From: Eledone cirrhosa
Lineage: Eukaryota
DNA length: 64,000 bases
Assembly: GCA_964016885.1 (NCBI GenBank)
Contig: OZ024753.1
Span: 30,690,001-30,754,000 of the forward strand
Direction: 5' to 3'
In this document: positions 16,690 to 52,381 of the stretch, in pieces
How positions within the stretch are numbered: the stretch's first letter is position 1
How the letters are laid out: every line of letters begins with the position of its first letter
Program-made: the position numbers and the translations under genes
Notes under the pieces: model-generated
Told to the model about the DNA's origin: nothing
Database searches by the model: none
The model's input: only the letters and a program-made list of their open reading frames with translations

Positions 16690-17160
16690 AAAACTGACAT
16701 CCAGGAAAGCCTGGATTCTCACCCTTCTAGATAGAAGTGTTGATATGAGGTCATTCTTTTGACCTGTACTGAGAAAAAATCTTGCCCTCCACACTTCGGA
16801 GTCAGATCGTTCTAAATTGGCTGATGACTGAGGAATTTTTTCTCTGCCCTCTTTCAACATGATAGAATGGTTCCCTTTTACCAGATCATCTCCACTGGTG
16901 AGTTTGCAGGTGCCCAGAGCTTGGTTCCTGAGTGGGTAATTCTGGGTTTCCCTCAAGAACTCCTTTCTGTCTTTTCTGGAGCTGTTCATCTTCCCAGATT
17001 TTGCGTCCTCTAGTAGCGATCTGGTGAATTGAAAGAGGTCTTTAATAAACTGAGCCCTTTTCCTTTCCAGCTCTCTCCTCTGCTTCTGAGTTCTTTTTGC
17101 TCTTCAGGGTCTATAGAAATGTTCCTTGAGTTGACCCGTTAGATGTGTAATGCTTCCTCT
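16690..17160 (-). mobile_element. degenerate HERO/NeSL-like non-LTR retrotransposon fragment
   Basis: RELERKRAQFIKDLFQFTRSLLEDAKSGKMNSS...EFLRETQ resembles the pre-RT region of R2/HERO-type elements; frameshifted. Confidence 0.5.
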
Positions 17161-17399
17161 TTCACAGTCAGGAGCTAAGTTGTACTGCTTATTTTTAACT
17201 TGTATGGCTTTGATTTGTTTTCTCTCAAGCAACATATCCATTCCTGGTTATTATAGTTGTATCTATTTTGAGTCTCCCATTCTTCCCTCACATCTCGGTT
17301 GACTCTGGGGGTATTTCCAGCTATTAATATTTGTAGCTTTATTTTGTGCCCTCTTGTTGCTGAATCCAGTTTGTTGTCAGATTAAAGTTTATGTCTTGT

Positions 17400-17750
17400 C
17401 TTGCAGTATATTACTCAAGATATGCTCCATCTTTCGCTGGGCGACATTGAGTATCTTCTTTGTGGTGTTATTCAGCGTGCAGGTCTCACTGGCAGGATGT
17501 GCTCATTGAAGATTTTCCGCTTTATTCTCATGGTGGCCTAGGGACTCTTCATGATGTTATATACCTTTCCAAAGGCTGCCCATACAAGCGTGATTCTTCT
17601 CTTGATTTCGGGGAAAAGATCACCATCCTTCGTCACCATCTTCCCTAAGTTAACATAACTGTCTACTCCCTCAACAATCTTGCCATTCATGGAGATAGGT
17701 GCTGGTGTGGCATATTTGTTGAACAAACATGACAGTCACTGCAGCCCAAA
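17400..17750 (-). mobile_element. RTE LINE fragment
   Basis: GKIVEGVDSYVNLG..DGDLFPEIKRRITLVWAAFGK (YxYLG / thumb region). Confidence 0.75.
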
Positions 17751-17799
17751 TCTTGACGTTTGATGTGGTGGTGTATAAGGCGAGGAAAAGAAAGTCGAT

Positions 17800-18115
17800 A
17801 TGAGTATTTGATAGTGATTGCCCCTATCACTCTTGCTATCATAAAGAAATAGGGGCTCATGCACTGGTTGCCCGTGGCCCCTGTGGACAGAATAGAGAAG
17901 GCATTTCCCCGGATGTTTTTGAGGGGAGACTCGTTGGAAGAGCCATTCCAGCTTGCGAGGCTCACACATGCGGGGAGCCAATTCCGTACCAATGGTAGTG
18001 AGTAGGGAGGTGGTTCTAGGGCCAAGGATACCAGAAGTCTCCACTGCTATGGGCTCAACTTCAAACCTGTCAGAGAACAACCGATATTTGGAGAATTTAC
18101 CCTCCTTGGCCTGAA
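17800..18115 (-). mobile_element. CRE-clade retrotransposon 3' end (REL endonuclease region)
   Basis: KFSKY..PIAVETSGILGP...WLFQRVS then frameshift to IRGNAFSI; the K--KY / P---ET-G / QR-S----RGNA pattern is typical of CRE. Confidence 0.7.
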
Positions 18116-18218
18116 GTGTATTCATTATGGCAGACACTACAGCATAAATCCTAATTGACTGATGGTGCAACTCCATTATATCTCAAGATAGATGGATGCC
18201 AAATATATATATATATTT

Positions 18219-18343
18219 CATCATCATCATTGTTTAACGTCCATCTTCCACGCTTGCATGGGTTTGGACGGGAGTTTTCCCACTTGAGGCAAGATTTGTT
18301 GTCCTGCTCGTAGGACTGTCTGGCGGGTTTTCTACGGCTGGAT
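18219..18343 (-). mobile_element. RTE family A terminal ~125 nt
   Basis: Matches reverse complement of 32370-32495. Confidence 0.85.
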
Positions 18344-18609
18344 AATACAGAGATAATACAGTAATCGGCTTATGTATTATCTCTTTATCTGGGTCAATTA
18401 CCTCCCTCCCGACCTAGTTGACTTCAAAGAGCAGTGCATATATGCTTTATTTAAAAAAAAAAAAAAAAAAAAATTAGTAGACCAACCGACCTAAAAGGCC
18501 GATTGGTCTACTAATTCTTTTTATTAATTTTATTACGAATTGTACATAAATGAATAATATTATCTCAAAGATATTACAAGTTATACAAATAATGAAAATA
18601 AAAAAAAAA

Positions 18610-19122
18610 TTACAAGTTTTCTTGAAATGGTTCTGGAGAAGTAGCAACTTGGTTTGAGTTCATCAAACGGGCGTATTTTCCTCATCTGTGTTGTTTGGTG
18701 TCGTTTTCTTTGTCTGAGTTATCGTTGTCACTTTCTTCGAATTGCAAAGTGTCCCCGCTTCTATCTGGAGACGGAGTCCGAAATCTGTCTTGTCTTTCTT
18801 TGACTGTTTGTTGAAGTCGTTCGTATTCGTCTAGAATATGAACGAGGTTGTTGTCACTAGAGCAACTGTCTTCATTTACTAAAGCAGAAAAGCAATGTTC
18901 GTAAAACAGAATATTCCATATGAATGGATTCAATTTTTTTTTAACGTATTTTAGGAACGGTGATGCTGAATTGAATGTGTATTCAGTGTAACGCGTCAAG
19001 AATGCAACTTTTTCTGAAAGTGGCACGTTTTGGTCAAATTTATTATTTGAAGTGATAATTAACGGCGTACGATGGACTACTTGGTCTTGTTTGAATTTAA
19101 TCGCTACTTCGGTGTCAACACC
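18610..19122 (-). other. endogenous parvovirus/densovirus-like element: NS1 SF3 helicase C-terminus
   Basis: GVDTEVAIKFKQDQVVHRTPLIITSNN (motif B' and C), AFLTRYTEYTF (Arg-finger region), KKLNPFIW, acidic tail; AT-rich with an abrupt compositional change from the adjoining LINE. Confidence 0.8.
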
Positions 19123-22062
19123 TATGTAAGCGTTCGCCACCTCCGCCCGACCTTTCAGGGATAGTTTGCACTTGGGTCAGTGCCAACACCCTATTCGTCA
19201 CCTCACCCCAGTTTTTCTCCACCTGGAGGTCCAGTCCAAACCAGACCCCAAGCAACTTCACCGGGCCCTCCGTCCACCGTCCGACGATACCGTCGGATGA
19301 CATCGGTTTGCCCCTCCACTCGCCGAGTTGCAAAGCGACTGACTTGTCCCGGTTCAGCTTAGCCCCTGTCAACCTTTCATACTCCTCCAGTAAGGTGCCG
19401 ATTGCTCTGATTTCTGCGGTGGTCGACACCATTACTGTTACGTCATCGGCATAGGCCGACACCGCTTTGCGCAATCCCGGTTCCAAAGGGATGCCCTGCA
19501 CCAATTCCAACTTCCGCAGTAGTGGCTCGAGAGCATTTCTGGACAACTTAAACAGTCCCTATCCTTAATTCTAACTAAGAACCTATCTAGGTACGATCTA
19601 GATTGACCGCTGTGGTTTGTCCAAGTCCAGGTTGACACAGTTGGAAAATCTGGTCAATATCTATCGGCCAGATCAAATCGGCCGATTAACCCTTTGAGGT
19701 TGTTACACCCCCTCTATCGGGACATGTCCCTACATAGTCTCAACGTGCATCTAGGATACCATTCCAGTCCCCCACTAAAAGCAAGGAGCGGGACGTCCCT
19801 AGAAAAGTCTCCAGGATATGGAAGAAGTCCGACCACATTGCCCCAAAAGGGGCGTAAATGGCGACAAGCCTAAAAGCTTAGCCTTCACCACTGCCAAGGT
19901 CCAGAACCACCAGTCGACCCTCCAGGTCCAAGTTTACCGTCTGTGTAGCGAGACCCAGATGTTTTTGCAGCAGAACGACACCCCCACCCCCACCTCCGGG
20001 CTGACAGAGAGATGCGTGCATCTCAAAGTCATCAAAGGTGGGGGCTAGTTGTCGCACGCTGCTGATCCGGGCCTCGCAAATAACCATCACATTTATAGAT
20101 CGTGACTTGAGGTCATTTAGAAGTTTAGCTTGCTTCCAAGGTGAACCCAGGCCACGCGCATTTAGACAACCTACTCTTAACACAGCCATGTTGGTGGTAA
20201 ACAAAGAAGCACTTACCTCTCTGCGTCCCGGGGTCCGGGCTGTTCAGTTTCCATGGGGGTCGGGAGGGGTTGTTGGGTGGGGTGGTGATGTAAGGGTATT
20301 AGTGTGTGGGGTGTGTGGTGGGTGTTTGAAGAGGGAGGCGAAAACCTTTCAGGAGGACGCGGTTGAGTGGCCTGGTGCAGGGTGGCCCCACGTCCTCAGG
20401 GTAAATGTTTTTCAATGTTTTAAAAATGTCAAGTGGGACCTTCACCATTTTCAGGTTAGGGAGTCCCGTTGCCATTGTAACATTCGGCCCTTCGGTTTGT
20501 ACCGAAGGGTTTATTTTGTCTAAGTTTTTATTGTTTTTGTTTATGTATGTGTAGAGTTTTTGTATTGTTTGTTTTTGTTTGTTGTTCTTGAGTGAGCTTG
20601 CGTTTTGTTGTCTGTGTTGTGTTGTCAGGTGGGGTTATTTTTGTTTGTGTGGTGTGTGTACGTTTTTTTCTTTTGACTTTTTGGAAAGGAGCCCTCTCGT
20701 CTTTCGAGGATATGAGCTCCTCTTCCGTATTGGAGGGGAGGGGTATATTGCCAGGTTGTGTTTGCACTGTGTGTGTATTTGTGTTCTGTGGGGAGGGGCT
20801 GGGTGGGACCGTATTTTGGGTTTGTTTTCTTGAGCTGTTGTTGTTGTTGTGGTGGTGTTATTGTTTGTGGTGTTTGTAATAAAGGTTTCTTTTTTATCAG
20901 TTGAGGGCATGCAACCCTCAGGTGACCTCTGCTTGCGCAGTGGTAACACGCGGGTCGCCTACCCTCAACTGAAATGTTTATGTAAGTTTCTCCATCTAAA
21001 TGAATTCTCTGTGGGATCTTCGCTATCCTTTCTGGGCTCATCTGCACCAGAAGTTCTACGCTGGTCCCACTAAAGACCTCTCTGAGGGACTTTCCAACCG
21101 AGATTATAATGTCTTGGTCAAGGTCTAAAACGCCACAAAGTAGCCACCAAGTGTCTACTTTGGGTCTTATGCAGTGGAATTTTATTTTTTGAGACCTTCT
21201 TCCCATGTAAGACGGGAAAAAGGTGAAGTGGGTGGATACAATGGGCACAATGGAATGTTTTTGCACCATTTCTTGGTCCTTCATAAGCACCGAGATGCTA
21301 CCGAAGAGTTTTCCTTTTTGAATGAACAAAATGTTTTCCATTTGGTTCCTTAAAACCAGCTCTATCTCACTCTGAGGCGGTTGTACTGGTTTTTTTGTAG
21401 CATTCGAGATTGTCCTGAACACCACCGTGCTCGTGGCAATTTCTCTTTTTTATTTCTTCAGGGGAATTAATGCTGAATGAACAATCGGGTTCGAAAGTCA
21501 CATACCTTTTTGCTTCTTCCAACTTTTGCTTTGTGTTGGTTAAATCTAAAGGTAGGAACATTTGTGTTTTTTTTTTACAGTTTCCGCAAAGGAAATTTTG
21601 TTGTTGTTGTCTTTCTTGTTATTGTTGTTGTCGCTGTTCAGTTTGGTGTTCGTATTGGTATCGATAATTTTACCGTTGCTGGTATTGTTTCCAATTTGTG
21701 TCTTTTTGGTTGTTGACTGTTGTTCCTTAACGTTTTTCGTTAAAGGAAGGGGGGGGGGGGAGCTGGACTCTTTGTTCTTTCAATTTTCCTCGAAGATTTT
21801 TTTTTTCTTTGGGGAGCGTGGCACCATGGTTTGTATTAATGCCGTCCATTACTATAAGCCGAGTTCACAAAAATGCAAGATGAAAACTTTCACCCCAAAA
21901 AGGGGCGAAAACAATAATAACCCCAACGTCTGCAGGCCCAAACGAGGGGTTTAAACTATATTACAATAGAAAAATAATCCAAAAACTCGCTCTTTACAAG
22001 GTAAAACCAATGTAAAACACAGAGCTCGTTAATACACGTCTACCTCCGTCAACAGACAGACT
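19123..22062 (-). mobile_element. L1/Tx1-clade LINE, 5' end intact, internally deleted, 3' part replaced
   Basis: ORF1 with CYHCASRGHLRVAC zinc knuckle; ORF2 from 20189 with APE (GCLNARGL, ICEAR, TWTN..SYLDRFL) jumping near 19540 to RT (ALEPLLRKL, AYADDVTV, GAKLNRDKS, KLLGVWF, LSLKGRAEVANAYI). Confidence 0.9.
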
Positions 22063-23164
22063 AAAACCCGACTAGCCAATGGTGCCAATTCTGTCACTTA
22101 AGATAGACAGATACCAAGTATTGGCAGGTTACTATCACAATTACAACATTTCATACAATGTATTCTTTATGGCAGTGTTGTCACAATGGTATATTTCCTG
22201 GCTTTTATTCTTTATGGCAAGAGGTTATCAGGCTCTATTATTTCCTTATCCTGTATTTATTATGGCAACCCAGATCCTCACTGACCAATGGAGCCAATGC
22301 CAAAATATTTCATGTTAGACGGATGCCAAAAAGTAATATAAGATATGTTGGCAGATTGTTATCACACTGTTATATTTTCTTATCCAATATTCATTAAGAC
22401 AACCCAAATCCTGACTGACCCATAGTGCAAATGTCAAAGTGTCTTGAGATAGCTGGATGTAAAATAAAAAAAAAATAAAGAGGATATCAAATGCAGTGTT
22501 TATTGATTATCACAGTTAAATTTAATTTCCTAACCTGTATTCATAACATTGATTTTTTTTTTTTAAAAACTTTGATTTATAGTGAAAAATGTGTATCACA
22601 CAAACCGTTTATAGTGAGAGACAAGCTAAAAGGTGTGCATGCAAGGAATGTGAGAGATGGCTTGTCTGTGTCTGGCTGTCCTGAAATGGTCAGCTACCAC
22701 TTGTAGTCCTAGTTGACCATTATGTGGTCGTACAAAATGAAGAGAGAACAACAAGGAACTAGCTCTCTCATTTGTCATTAAAAAGCTAGGGATGACATCA
22801 TGGTGAATTTTCATTATACATGACAAATTTCAAATATGATAGGGAAATATGCCATATATTTGTATAATAACAAAATTCACCAAAGAGTGGTTTTACTCCA
22901 TATAGTTTGCCACTCGTTCAAAGCCAACATATTCAGTGCCTGATACATTTTAAAAATTGACAGATCTGGCGGAGATAATGGAGGATTGAAAATCAGTTTC
23001 ATTCTTGAGTAATTGTTTTTGCTGAATGATTTGATTTAGGGTAGACTTGAAATATCTATTATTTCCCTTACTGCACCCTCTTTTGTGTCATCTGGTTCTT
23101 ATTCACTGCCTTGGTGTTCACCCTGTCACTCTAATACTCCACCTGTGTCTCTGAAAGGAGAGAC

Positions 23165-24090
23165 ATGACCAGTCTATCTATGTTTGCCATTTTTATCATC
23201 TCAATTATGTCCTTCACGCCAGTCTGCTGTCGAATCAAGGTGTTGCTCTTCCTGCCACATAAGGTGATGCCGAGCAACATTCGCTCCGTTTTATGTTGGG
23301 CCGTTGCAAGAGTCTCTGCAGTGGTGGTGTTGAGTGCTCACATTTCACTTCCATGTCATCACCAGCAGAAGATATTTGTTAAACACCTTTCTTTTTTCTT
23401 TTTGGGTTCGATTGTTGACTTTGGACTTCTAATGATGTAATAAGCTTTTACAAAAGCCACCCAGCCAAGCAATAATCTTTCTTCTGACCTCTGGAAGTTG
23501 GGCACCATCTCTTGCAACCTTCTTTCCGAGGTATGTGTAACTCTACTTCCTCAATGGTCTTTCCATCTACAATAACTGGTGATGGTTTAGTGTGGCTGTT
23601 AAGCATGACGTTGGTTTTCCTGAGATGAATGTTAAAGCCTACTGAGCTCACAGTGTGAATAACATTGAGTATCTCCAATTTTTAAGGTGTGTGGGCTCTT
23701 AGGATGATGTCATGTGTGAAATCTAGGTGGTAGAGGAGTTGATACCCTTTTTCTCCCAGTTAACTTTGTTGATGATGACGTCTTACAAATATGATGTAAA
23801 CATTCTCAAGGAAATGTCTTCTTGTCTTGTTCCTCTTTCTAATTTGATCTTGTTGCTGTCTTGGTGTAATCCTAAAGTGTGTGTTGCACCATTGTAAAGA
23901 TCCTTTAGTAATGTGATGTAAGCAGAGTCCACTCCTTGGTTCTTTCAGTGCTGTGAATAATGGGGCAAATTCAAAGGCAAAGCAGAGACAGAAATTGTAT
24001 TCATTTGCCTTCTCTTGTAGTTGACAAACTACCTGGATCTGGTCTATTGTTGAGAATCCTGACCTGAATCCTACCTGCTCTTGCTTGGTG
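23165..24090 (-). mobile_element. degenerate RTE LINE RT fragment
   Basis: QVGFRSGFSTIDQI, QLQEKANEY, GFNIHLRKTNVM..DGKTIEEV; many frameshifts. Confidence 0.75.
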
Positions 24091-25146: not shown

Positions 25147-25618
25147 TAGTGCTGCTGCCATAAGAAAATACACTCAGCCCTTTCTGTAAAGTGGTAGTGC
25201 TGGTGCCATAAGAAAATGCACTCAGCTCTTTCTGTAAAGTGGTAGTGCTGCTGCCATAAGAAAATGCACTCAGCTCTTTCTGTAAAGTGGTAGTGCTGGT
25301 GCAATAAGAAAATGCACTCAGCCCATACTGTAAAGTTGTAGTGCTGGTGCCATAAGAAAATGCACTCAGCTCTTTCTGTAAAGTGGTAGTGCTGCTGCCA
25401 TAAGAAAATACGCTCAGCCCTTTCTGTAAAGTGGTAGTGCTGGTGCAATAAGAAAATGCACTCAGCCCATACTGTAAAATTGTAGTGCTGGTGCCATGAT
25501 AAAATACATTCAGCCCACAATGTATAGTGGTAGTGCTGGTGCCATGATAAATGTACCCAGCCTTCACTGTAAAGTGATAGTGTTGGTGCCATAATAAAAT
25601 ACATCTAGCCCACTTTAA
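25147..25618. repeat. 48-bp minisatellite (~10 units)
   Basis: GTAGTGCTGGTGCCATAAGAAAATGCACTCAGCTCTTTCTGTAAAGTG-type units. Confidence 0.95.
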
Positions 25619-51471: not shown

Positions 51472-52381
51472 ATCATCATCATCATCATCATCATCAGGTT
51501 TAGCGTCTGTGTTCCACGCTTGCATGGGTTTGGACGGGGGTTTTCCCACTTGAGGCAAGAGTGGTTGTCTTGCTCGCATAGGACTGTCTGGCGGGTTTTC
51601 TACAGTTGGATGCCCTTCCTAACACCAACCACATTTACAGTGTGGGGCTGGGAGGTTTTTACCGTGTTGCCTACACGGCCACATTACAGCGTGGACTGTC
51701 TGGCGGGTTTTCTACAGCTGGATGCCCTTCCTAACACCAACCACATTTACAGTGTGGGGCTGGGAGGTTTTTACCGTGTTGCCTACACGGCCACATTTAC
51801 AGCGTGGACTGTGTGTTTTTTGTCGTGACACCTACACGATCTCATTTGTTTCGGCCTGGATGTTGTGGGACCAACATAACTTTACATTGAAAGGGGCGGT
51901 GTGGGTGGGGTGGAGGTGGTGGGACGGGGGTGTGTTTTGATAGAGATGCCTACTGACTGTAGTAGGTTTTTACTTTGTATTTAGGTAAGGCGGGTCTTCT
52001 CTATTACTGAGTACCGCCAAAGGTCTCGGTCCAGTGACATTGTCTTGGAGAGGTGTAAGCATGTGAGGTCGGAATTTATCAGCTCGTCCCATGTTTTTCT
52101 AGGTCTGCCTACTCCGTGGCTACCGTCTATCTTTATTGCCCTGCACTTTGTTATACAGCTATCGTCTTTCATGCGCATCACGTGACCGTACCAACGTAGC
52201 CTTCTCTCGAGTAAACAACATCTGATCCCTCTTATTTCTAATTTTTTCCTTAGTTCGTTTATGCTTTGCCGTTCACGTATATTACTATTGCACATCCAGC
52301 GGAGCATGCAAGCTTCGTTCCTCTCTAGTCTGCGTATATCCTCTGCACACAATGCCCAGGTCTCACTGCCATGCAGCATTG

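Follow-up and report, generated by a model that had tools for sequence, protein, structure and literature searches.

The window, a stretch of 64,000 nucleotides from Eledone cirrhosa, contains a composite block in which the 5' part of a Tx1 element, the 3' end of a parvovirus-like NS1 gene, a non-coding hairpin DNA and the tail of an RTE element lie end to end on the minus strand. The anatomy of this block is confirmed: the four parts adjoin with no host spacer, in the places and the polarity that an initial annotation had given them. The reading of its origin that we favour, tentatively and with more doubt than confidence, is that a break in an older RTE copy was patched by a LINE reverse transcriptase (RT) copying a virus and then Tx1, in an endonuclease-independent insertion of two templates.

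Parts of the composite block

The block and its flanks comprise the following features.

~22054 to 18219, minus strand: the whole block, consisting of Tx1 5' part, NS1 3' end, hairpin DNA and RTE tail, no spacers
18120..18203, no strand: host repeat, left unit (degenerate; flank), matching the right array; nhmmer match 18135-18203
18203..18218, no strand: short TA run, the RTE target, on the tail side only; 14-nt TA alternation
18219..18343, minus strand: RTE-type LINE, last 125 nt of the 3' UTR with (GAT)n tail, 5' side broken; 87-91% to three in-window copies
18341..18361, no strand: RTE/viral junction; GAT (3 letters) fits either side, and a direct duplication of 10 nt comes next
18344..18609, minus strand: AT-rich non-coding DNA after NS1, 266 nt; probable viral genome end
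18345..18388, minus strand: hairpin 2 (inverted repeat I2), 16-nt arms, cut by the RTE junction
18454..18534, minus strand: hairpin 1 (inverted repeat I1), arms of 39 nt, with a sense-strand T20 run at the end
18610..19122, minus strand: parvovirus-like NS1, 3' third (SF3 helicase end and C-terminus), 171 codons; 66% to P0001, 70% to P0002
19123..19534, minus strand: fragment of a Tx1-type RT and thumb, its 3' part lost at the junction with NS1; RVT_1 E 4.4e-05, under the Pfam cut-off
19535..20200, minus strand: Tx1-type APE domain, 3 stops and 1 frameshift; three-frame translation
20245..21827, minus strand: Tx1 ORF1 with CCHC knuckle, stops and frameshifts in simple-sequence tracts; zf-CCHC E 0.0054, under the Pfam cut-off
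21828..22054, minus strand: Tx1 5' UTR, reaching what is probably the 5' end of the family; family depth drops in bin 21944-22174
22055..22465, no strand: host repeat, right array of three degenerate units (flank); nhmmer matches 22055-22117, 22260-22330 and 22394-22464

From their motifs we take the element at 18219-18343 to be an RTE and the other LINE to belong to the L1/Tx1 clade; the APE domain, presumably one by its motifs as well, has no Pfam match, and its sole PDB match is unrelated. Reads were compared from four of seven listed sequencing runs, among them X1, X3 and X4. The RTE tail does break off at GGAT, as had been claimed, because family copies carry on past 18343 with other letters; this holds for its sisters in the window (one of which leads into a 465-aa RT frame, RVT_1) and, in the 24 loose-end rows listed out of 2459, for loose ends in three of the four runs (X1, X3 and X4). 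In a comparison of four copies, 8 substitutions over the 125 nt look private to the tail, against 1-3 for its three sisters; roughly 3-4 would be expected at the divergence of Tx1, and the excess has P 0.015-0.03 if the differences are private. The tail may accordingly be older than Tx1; its age is not fixed, since the extra differences may be subfamily marks, and at position 18310 the variant commoner genome-wide is not that of the in-window comparators.

The ORF1 of the Tx1 copy differs from contigs of its subfamily, which numbers ~15-20 copies (depth 73-101), by 2.2-2.9%, and no homologue of it was found among 239 candidates. The skip from the end of APE to mid-RT is present as annotated, at ~19534 rather than ~19540, with about 2 shared letters and family contigs aligning from 19533 or 19537; a second deletion of about 11 nt lies at 19164-19175, where the family also has loose ends. 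The element is truncated at its 3' end in the thumb region, at 19123-19124, without poly(A) and without a target-site duplication (TSD). Its outer edge with the host repeat had been put at 22061; ~22051-22055 is likelier. A unique contig of X1 starts at 22021, and record 23 of X4 spans 21778-23300.

The NS1 fragment matches P0001, a 547-aa Parvo_NS1 protein, at 66% over 141 aa (E 1.4e-18), while by itself it gives a weak SF3 match; P0001 scores 67 bits to Parvo_NS1 (cut-off 20), and its PDB matches include AAV Rep and a parvoviral NS1. The homology reaches ~18619, beyond one premature in-frame stop at 18682-18684, and the terminal stop is at 18610-18612. Judged by its NS1/SF3 sequence, the fragment appears to be a Parvoviridae-derived EVE, of a lineage that looks parvovirus-like in its NS1 only. 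No capsid (VP) frame was found in the 266 nt after NS1, where the longest ATG-led frames are of 40 codons on the plus strand and 13 on the minus; because the viral piece is partial, the missing VP does not exclude a viral origin. The lack of a capsid gene behind NS1 is a hint that the segment carried NS1 alone. Contigs of 1.86-2.2 kb hold several NS1 relatives, the 547-aa one being on a contig of 2093 nt, and two clusters have multiple copies per long contig; a scan of viral and metagenome contigs for the DNA context of these relatives confirmed no locus, and no capsid segment was found. On our assessment it is improbable that a single reverse-transcription event fused both LINE clades with the hairpin end of a ~2.1-kb segment bearing only NS1, whose source would be a segmented parvovirus lineage (or a Rep element lacking a capsid), so far undescribed, in molluscs and other marine invertebrates; if true, the locus would be a fossil of LINE-made capture of a ssDNA virus, and would suggest that bipartite parvoviruses arose a second time.

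The DNA that follows NS1 folds strongly. Hairpin 1 as RNA has a z of -9.3 and the region of both hairpins (18454-18534 and 18345-18388) one of -6.7, with 0 of 200 shuffles as good in either case; a fold equal to that of the hairpin region occurs in 3 of the 138 comparable 200-nt tiles across the window. We infer that the two hairpins are probably viral, a candidate hairpin telomere. Both G-U pairs of hairpin 1 (2/2) fall on the sense strand, for which the chance is 1 in 4. Three other identities were rejected: as known RNAs, the hairpins gave 11 Rfam matches, every one far under the gathering score; as a high-copy MITE, hairpin 1 would not have a depth near single-copy in bin 18479-18709, nor be alone of its kind in the window; and as the poly(A) tail of a plus-strand transcript, the A20 run lacks an upstream signal and pairs within hairpin 1. 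The bin of hairpin 2 is dominated by depth from RTE copies.

Junctions, copy number and target site

All junctions of the block are seamless, with overlaps of 0-3 nt (0-2 nt between virus and Tx1). At the RTE/viral junction the 10-nt duplication (repeat family D6) occupies 18341-18350 and 18352-18361, and comparison with the other arm of the hairpin shows that it is templated. This is also where an assembly artefact would lie, since among the 24 of 37369 pieces listed no contig bridges 18343/18344, and reads are cut at the A20 run (18442-18484). An artefact is nevertheless very improbable: the same host repeat stands on both outer sides, overlap and duplication at a junction are typical of real joins, and the NS1/Tx1 and Tx1/host junctions are both bridged in a second sample, S2. 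Record 19 of X4 bridges the NS1/Tx1 junction with 49 nt on the Tx1 side.

The NS1 contig has a depth of 6.3 in X1 and 4.6 in X3, unique flanks having 4.9-5.6 and 4.3-4.9, and the viral piece looks single-copy; with a bridged junction, a flank-like depth and a premature stop, it is integrated in host DNA. This dosage also bears on two other ideas, a Tx1-NS1 composite element that recurs in the genome and a fusion brought in as a copy of another source locus. At their junction, NS1 and the Tx1 thumb motif share one frame, and a short match of ~85-90% to 18789-18803 occurs on other contigs; yet NS1 is no deeper than unique flanks, Tx1 family members run on as normal Tx1 sequence at 19122-19124 and the frame is broken upstream at 19164-19175, so that these ideas are highly unlikely. 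A Tx1-NS1 in-frame fusion protein is rejected because of the same break, ~40 nt upstream. Decay affects 1 of 171 codons in NS1 and 5 of 363 in Tx1 (Fisher P 0.67), which is compatible, in a weak test, with NS1 not being measurably younger than Tx1.

The degenerate host repeat does flank the block on both sides, as annotated, the left unit matching the right array better than any of 1000 shuffles. Between the cores of the right array the spacers are 153 and 75 nt, and taking the block out would bring two units together with zero spacer; at least ~55 nt of host repeat were lost at the site. The second half of the TA target is likewise absent at the far end: no TA run of 8 nt or more occurs anywhere in 18219-22600 (background, 159 of 984 windows), while sister RTE copies in TA runs have such a run at both ends in six cases out of eight, the other two comprising one with a short TA-rich end and one with an end that was not located. 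No TSD was found around the whole block, the longest words common to its edges being of 4-7 nt. An empty allele, joining ~18203 to ~22060, does not appear among the 15 of 113 joints listed, from contigs that drop rare variants; a joint of 23142 to 17639 was rejected as one, as it arises from two homologous RTE fragments in the flanks, recognised by their translations.

Origin of the block

Shared polarity, junctions of 0-3 nt, the 10-nt duplication and the like decay of NS1 and Tx1 are compatible with a template-jumping polymerase. The viral piece was most likely caught up in the repair of a chromosome break, and not brought in by a single clean retrotransposon insertion. For the favoured reading, we infer the order of events and the enzyme as follows. 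An RTE copy would already have been resident in the TA run of the host repeat when a double-strand break cut through it. The exposed end, which finishes in GGAT and has a polarity suited to priming, would have annealed by ~3 nt to a parvovirus-like template, either DNA or read-through RNA, at its hairpin end. A LINE RT, most simply Tx1's own, would then have copied ~780 nt after one false start that left the 10-nt duplication, jumped onto Tx1 RNA in mid-RT, skipped twice and reached the Tx1 5' end. The new strand would have been joined to the far side of the break, with the RTE remainder, the TA half and some host repeat lost, and the outcome would be a dead, single-copy viral fossil.

In favour of this patched break are the missing TSD, far TA run and host spacer, the substitution excess of the RTE tail, the equal decay of NS1 and Tx1, and the single polarity of virus and Tx1 with an overlap of 0-2 nt; the 3' truncation, lack of a TSD, loss of target DNA and captured foreign sequence match human non-classical L1 insertions. 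It leaves the co-orientation of the RTE to chance (1 in 2), and the extra differences of the RTE may mark a subfamily; Tx1 has two skips, whereas internal rearrangement is rare in the human set (2/21; PMC1920257), and parvoviral DNA can be captured at breaks without any RT.

This last point leads to an unlikely but weighty alternative, in which the RTE and a complete Tx1 pre-existed, a break caused a multi-kb deletion (RTE 5' part, intervening host DNA and Tx1 3' part) and end joining inserted viral DNA, hairpin end first, with no need to reverse-transcribe the virus. Short templated duplications, typical of polymerase-theta end joining, would fit here too, and the absent TA half, spacer and TSD are accounted for equally well. 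The viral piece passes three sense AATAAA signals (18534, 18525 and 18451) without a sense poly(A), and for this reason was not copied from a mature mRNA ending at them. A hairpin end with a partial genome is the usual form of AAV capture at breaks (PMC6769011), and since an octopus genome is ~66% repeat (PMC13282606), transposable elements are expected as flanks. Such a patch, however, needs two LINEs to have landed in one small host array, all three parts to agree in orientation by chance (1 in 4) and each of the two skips in Tx1 to be an event of its own, and NS1 is not measurably younger than Tx1, in a weak test.

The initial annotation had instead seen a single RTE-primed insertion of three templates: the RTE RT would prime at the TA run, copy the 125-nt tail, jump to the virus and then to Tx1 RNA, and insert everything together, the far junction suffering a deletion. 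It agrees with the shared polarity, seamless junctions, templated duplication and similar decay of NS1 and Tx1, and fails on the absent TSD and the missing far TA half (against 6/8 sister copies). One polarity with a LINE tail at the 3' end is the layout of known chimeric retrocopies; double template switches are on record (PMC2104539), R2 RT jumps back-to-back onto RNA or DNA templates (PMC11581009), and RTE and L1-Tx1 both have young families in Octopus vulgaris (PMC13282606). Nonetheless, the direct repeats that served as grounds for accepting tripartite chimeras do not flank the block, its host spacer is gone, the RTE tail may be older, given the P value above if its differences are private, and a cross-clade LINE jump into the middle of an RNA is required; we consider this course of events distinctly unlikely.

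Parvoviral fossils are usually ascribed to DNA repair, and the route is seldom readable. Because all junctions survive here, one population or sister-species comparison could show whether a LINE RT put a DNA virus into the germline; if end joining of viral DNA is true, what the locus holds is an ordinary viral fossil, in a genome rich in repeats. It also records an unnamed parvovirus-like lineage in octopods, with NS1 and no capsid gene after it.

Comparison with known systems

The closest parallels lie in three kinds of insertion and one virus. Human non-classical L1 insertions (Sen et al. 2007, PMC1920257) are 3'-truncated and free of TSDs, with target DNA deleted in 18/21 and foreign sequence captured, and the block resembles them in its 3'-truncated element, putatively of the L1 clade, without poly(A) or TSD, target loss, end-captured foreign sequence and junction microhomology; it differs in that the capture is viral and of ~780 nt, with two internal skips, and the pre-insertion state was verified for the human cases only (PMC1920257). 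Tripartite LINE chimeras (Gogvadze et al. 2007, PMC2104539) likewise consist of three co-oriented parts with no spacer, the priming side being taken by the 3' end of a LINE; those chimeras, by contrast, have flanking direct repeats of 14-16 bp, absent here, and are made of cellular RNAs, SINEs and one LINE, whereas the block joins a virus and two LINE clades (PMC2104539).

Among AAV integrants the commonest type has one hairpin end and a partial genome (9 of 20 clones), and ITR sequence occurs in 83.5% of junctions formed by capture at breaks (PMC6769011). Endogenous parvoviral elements and AAV captured at breaks are like the block in having a partial genome, one hairpin end (a candidate one in the block), short or no microhomology and transposable elements as neighbours, but here both junctions cut LINEs of the same polarity and NS1 has no capsid gene behind it (PMC5013282, PMC6769011). 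An NS cassette without a capsid gene, with a structured terminus of ~200 nt, is also found in the bipartite segmented densovirus of Acheta domesticus; its NS segment measures 3316 nt, has T-shaped ends and encodes an NS1 of 796 aa, compared with 547 aa on a contig of 2093 nt for the relative of our fragment (PMC10267136).

Anatomy of the composite and its flanks

The initial annotation had placed an RTE tail, a viral NS1 fragment and a Tx1 element on the minus strand of one block, with units of a degenerate host repeat on both outer sides, and a right-to-left reading of the window sequence bears this arrangement out.

Features of the composite and its flanks
22465-22055: host repeat array, right flank, on the outer side of the Tx1-type LINE
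~22054-19123, minus: L1/Tx1-type LINE, probable 5' end to mid-ORF2
19122-18610, minus: 3' third of NS1
Between NS1 and the RTE-type 3' UTR, minus: non-coding DNA, 266 nt
18343-18219, minus: RTE-type 3' UTR, 125 nt, with (GAT)n tail
Beyond the RTE tail, left side: short TA run, then one more host unit

The left-hand host unit aligns with the right array better than any of 1000 shuffles. The RTE-type tail is part of a LINE, since a sister copy runs on into an RVT_1 frame of 465 aa; RTE and Tx1 are provisional clade names, given from sequence motifs. In the sequencing-run contigs, loose ends of family members put the RTE break at 18343 and the Tx1 break at 19122-19124, and they show that Tx1 lost ~11 nt at 19164-19175. 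Diverged family contigs place the large Tx1 skip noted previously at ~19534, where about 2 letters fit both sides. Another RTE copy (51581-51812) has a 112-nt tandem duplication in its 3' UTR, over the motif where the 18343 copy breaks.

A single clean insertion, as first proposed, lacks its usual marks. No target-site duplication was found, the longest words common to both edges being 4-7 nt. A TA run of at least 10 nt stands at the tail in 8 of the 15 other tail copies in the window, which is rich in TA microsatellites. In six of these eight a TA run also begins where the element stops, against a background of 159/984 windows; a seventh has a shorter TA-rich end, and in the eighth the end could not be placed. 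The composite has no TA run of at least 8 nt anywhere in 18219-22600. Intact host units lie 75 and 153 nt apart, whereas excising the block would leave them with next to no spacer; every model therefore has to include a loss of target DNA.

The neighbouring LINE fragments at 17200-18120 and 23100-24000, two putative RTE-like RT ends and a third piece with what we take to be a restriction-like endonuclease motif, share the minus strand, whereas in the rest of the window tail copies occur in both orientations; such a local strand bias would weaken the argument from co-orientation. At 30728-32122 (plus) and 27095-28477 (minus) there are two long RT frames that carry a PHD-finger insert and share 76% identity, each beside long TA arrays, and a 48-nt tandem repeat at 25147-25600 (9.5 copies, long open frames on the minus strand) has a short motif in common with the host repeat, in opposite orientation.

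The viral piece and its relatives

An open stretch of 146 codons shares 66% identity over 141 aa with P0001, a protein of 547 aa with Parvo_NS1 at 67 bits and matches to AAV Rep in PDB; the closest named relative, P0002 (UniRef 'SF3 helicase domain-containing protein', Octopus bimaculoides), reaches 70% over 105 aa and, with the TA microsatellites of the window, suggests an octopod host. Among 1.84 billion representatives 24 relatives turned up, and of 21 clusters looked up three are named (the Octopus protein, a Lamellibrachia hypothetical protein and an uncultured densovirus NS1). Viral and metagenome contig collections yielded no relative with its DNA context. Homology extends to ~18619, beyond the in-frame stop at 18682-18684, which makes one break in the fragment's 171 codons. 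The DNA after the terminal stop has no capsid frame on either strand and no sense poly(A), three sense AATAAA signals, and two hairpins with folds that shuffled sequences do not approach (z -6.7 and -9.3; equally good folds in 3/138 comparable window tiles), from which we infer the end of a viral genome.

Relatives from seven clusters (P0001, P0011, P0046, P0009, P0016, P0023, P0037) lie on contigs of 2093, 2094, 2095, 2063-2202, 1863, 1862 and 1710-1866 nt, and other relatives have contigs that measure 3155-5095 nt or exceed this by far. At 1.7-2.2 kb, three of them 2093-2095 nt, the short contigs have room for NS1 alone. They may represent an NS1-only segment, as in the bipartite parvovirus AdSDV (PMC10267136), and in our locus too NS1 is followed by a structured end with no capsid gene; it is just as likely that they are transcripts or fragments. 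In the P0016 (P0027-P0033) and P0017 (P0048-P0050) clusters several NS1-like copies share a single long contig (168 kb, 836 kb, 1 Mb), one multi-copy cluster taking its name from the tubeworm Lamellibrachia; such copies may be viral fossils that were amplified, or mobile elements that lack a capsid.

Copy number and ages of the parts

The stretch is present in four runs of one study, and four of seven listed runs were compared with the window at 85% likeness. Depth of the NS1 contig resembles that of unique flanks (X1, 6.3 against 4.9-5.6; X3, 4.6 against 4.3-4.9, one short flank contig having depth 2), suggesting a single locus at full dose in runs X1 and X3, which are one sample and may be the assembly's source. 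In X4, a second sample, NS1/Tx1 is spanned by one contig, which differs at 3 of 650 letters, and Tx1/host by a second one. No piece bridging the RTE/hairpin junction occurs among the 24 listed of 37369, nor an empty-allele joint among the 15 listed of 113. X4 contigs total only 88 million letters, against ~1,390 million, and over 17016-23300 their depth is 17.8 at the right flank, then 8.8, 4.9 and 3.8 leftwards. The viral fossil at this locus is real, decaying and apparently single-copy, and its junctions can be read unusually well. Short contigs in X1 (depth ~9) and X3 (~120), together with 74 RAD reads from a further sample, match 18789-18803 in the C-terminal part of NS1 with several differences, perhaps reflecting a second related fossil, perhaps low complexity.

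Tx1 ORF1 differs by 2.2-2.9% from four listed subfamily contigs (depth 73-101, about 15-20 copies), which would correspond to some 6-8 Myr, provided that the O. vulgaris scale holds here, in which 0.09 equals 25 Myr (PMC13282606). Breaks number 1/171 codons in NS1 and, counted by eye, 5/363 in Tx1 APE + RT, with no difference (P 0.67). The RTE tail has 8 substitutions absent from every other of 4 copies, which have 1-3 (P 0.015-0.03 at Tx1's rate), a hint only that it is older, because variant counts at 18310 suggest that the copies used for comparison may be of a different subfamily. The equal age expected of one insertion is compatible with the NS1 and Tx1 figures, but possibly not with the RTE tail.

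Mechanism and comparison with known systems

Shared polarity, overlaps of 0-3 nt, a 10-nt templated duplication and two skips fit a jumping polymerase, as initially envisaged, and serial jumps of non-LTR RTs onto RNA or DNA templates are known from R2 (PMC11581009); the lost target DNA, together with the possibly older RTE, fits a break inside a resident RTE copy. We weigh three testable histories, ranked by judgement rather than computation. That a single event joined RTE tail, virus and Tx1 is unlikely: tripartite chimeras offer precedent (PMC2104539), but those were accepted on flanking repeats, which the composite lacks. Nearly as good as our first choice, if doubtful, is a viral DNA patch between two resident LINEs; the viral piece is no copy of an mRNA with a poly(A) end, and AAV at breaks most often leaves one ITR with partial cargo (9/20 clones; PMC6769011). 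We tentatively rank first a non-classical-L1-like insertion, in which a break would have opened inside a resident, possibly older RTE copy with loss of some target DNA. What these last two readings have in common, that the capture took place at a break within an older RTE, is fairly probable.

Each ingredient is already known: parvovirus-related sequences have been reported beside transposons in many invertebrates including molluscs, in passages of PMC5013282 that do not mention octopus, and RT-made viral copy DNA has been proposed for a shrimp parvovirus (PMC8507497; general background in PMC6007223, PMC11357303 and PMC9707805). Among the papers listed from mostly open-access literature, judged in part by title and opening of the abstract, none described an octopus parvoviral element or a parvovirus-LINE chimera, although hits from cephalopods may stand in the tables of PMC5013282. 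The closest parallel to a break inside a resident RTE copy is the non-classical L1 insertion, which has the same pattern: 3' truncation, no target-site duplication, deletions at 18/21 loci and, at 2 loci, other RNAs captured alongside (PMC1920257).
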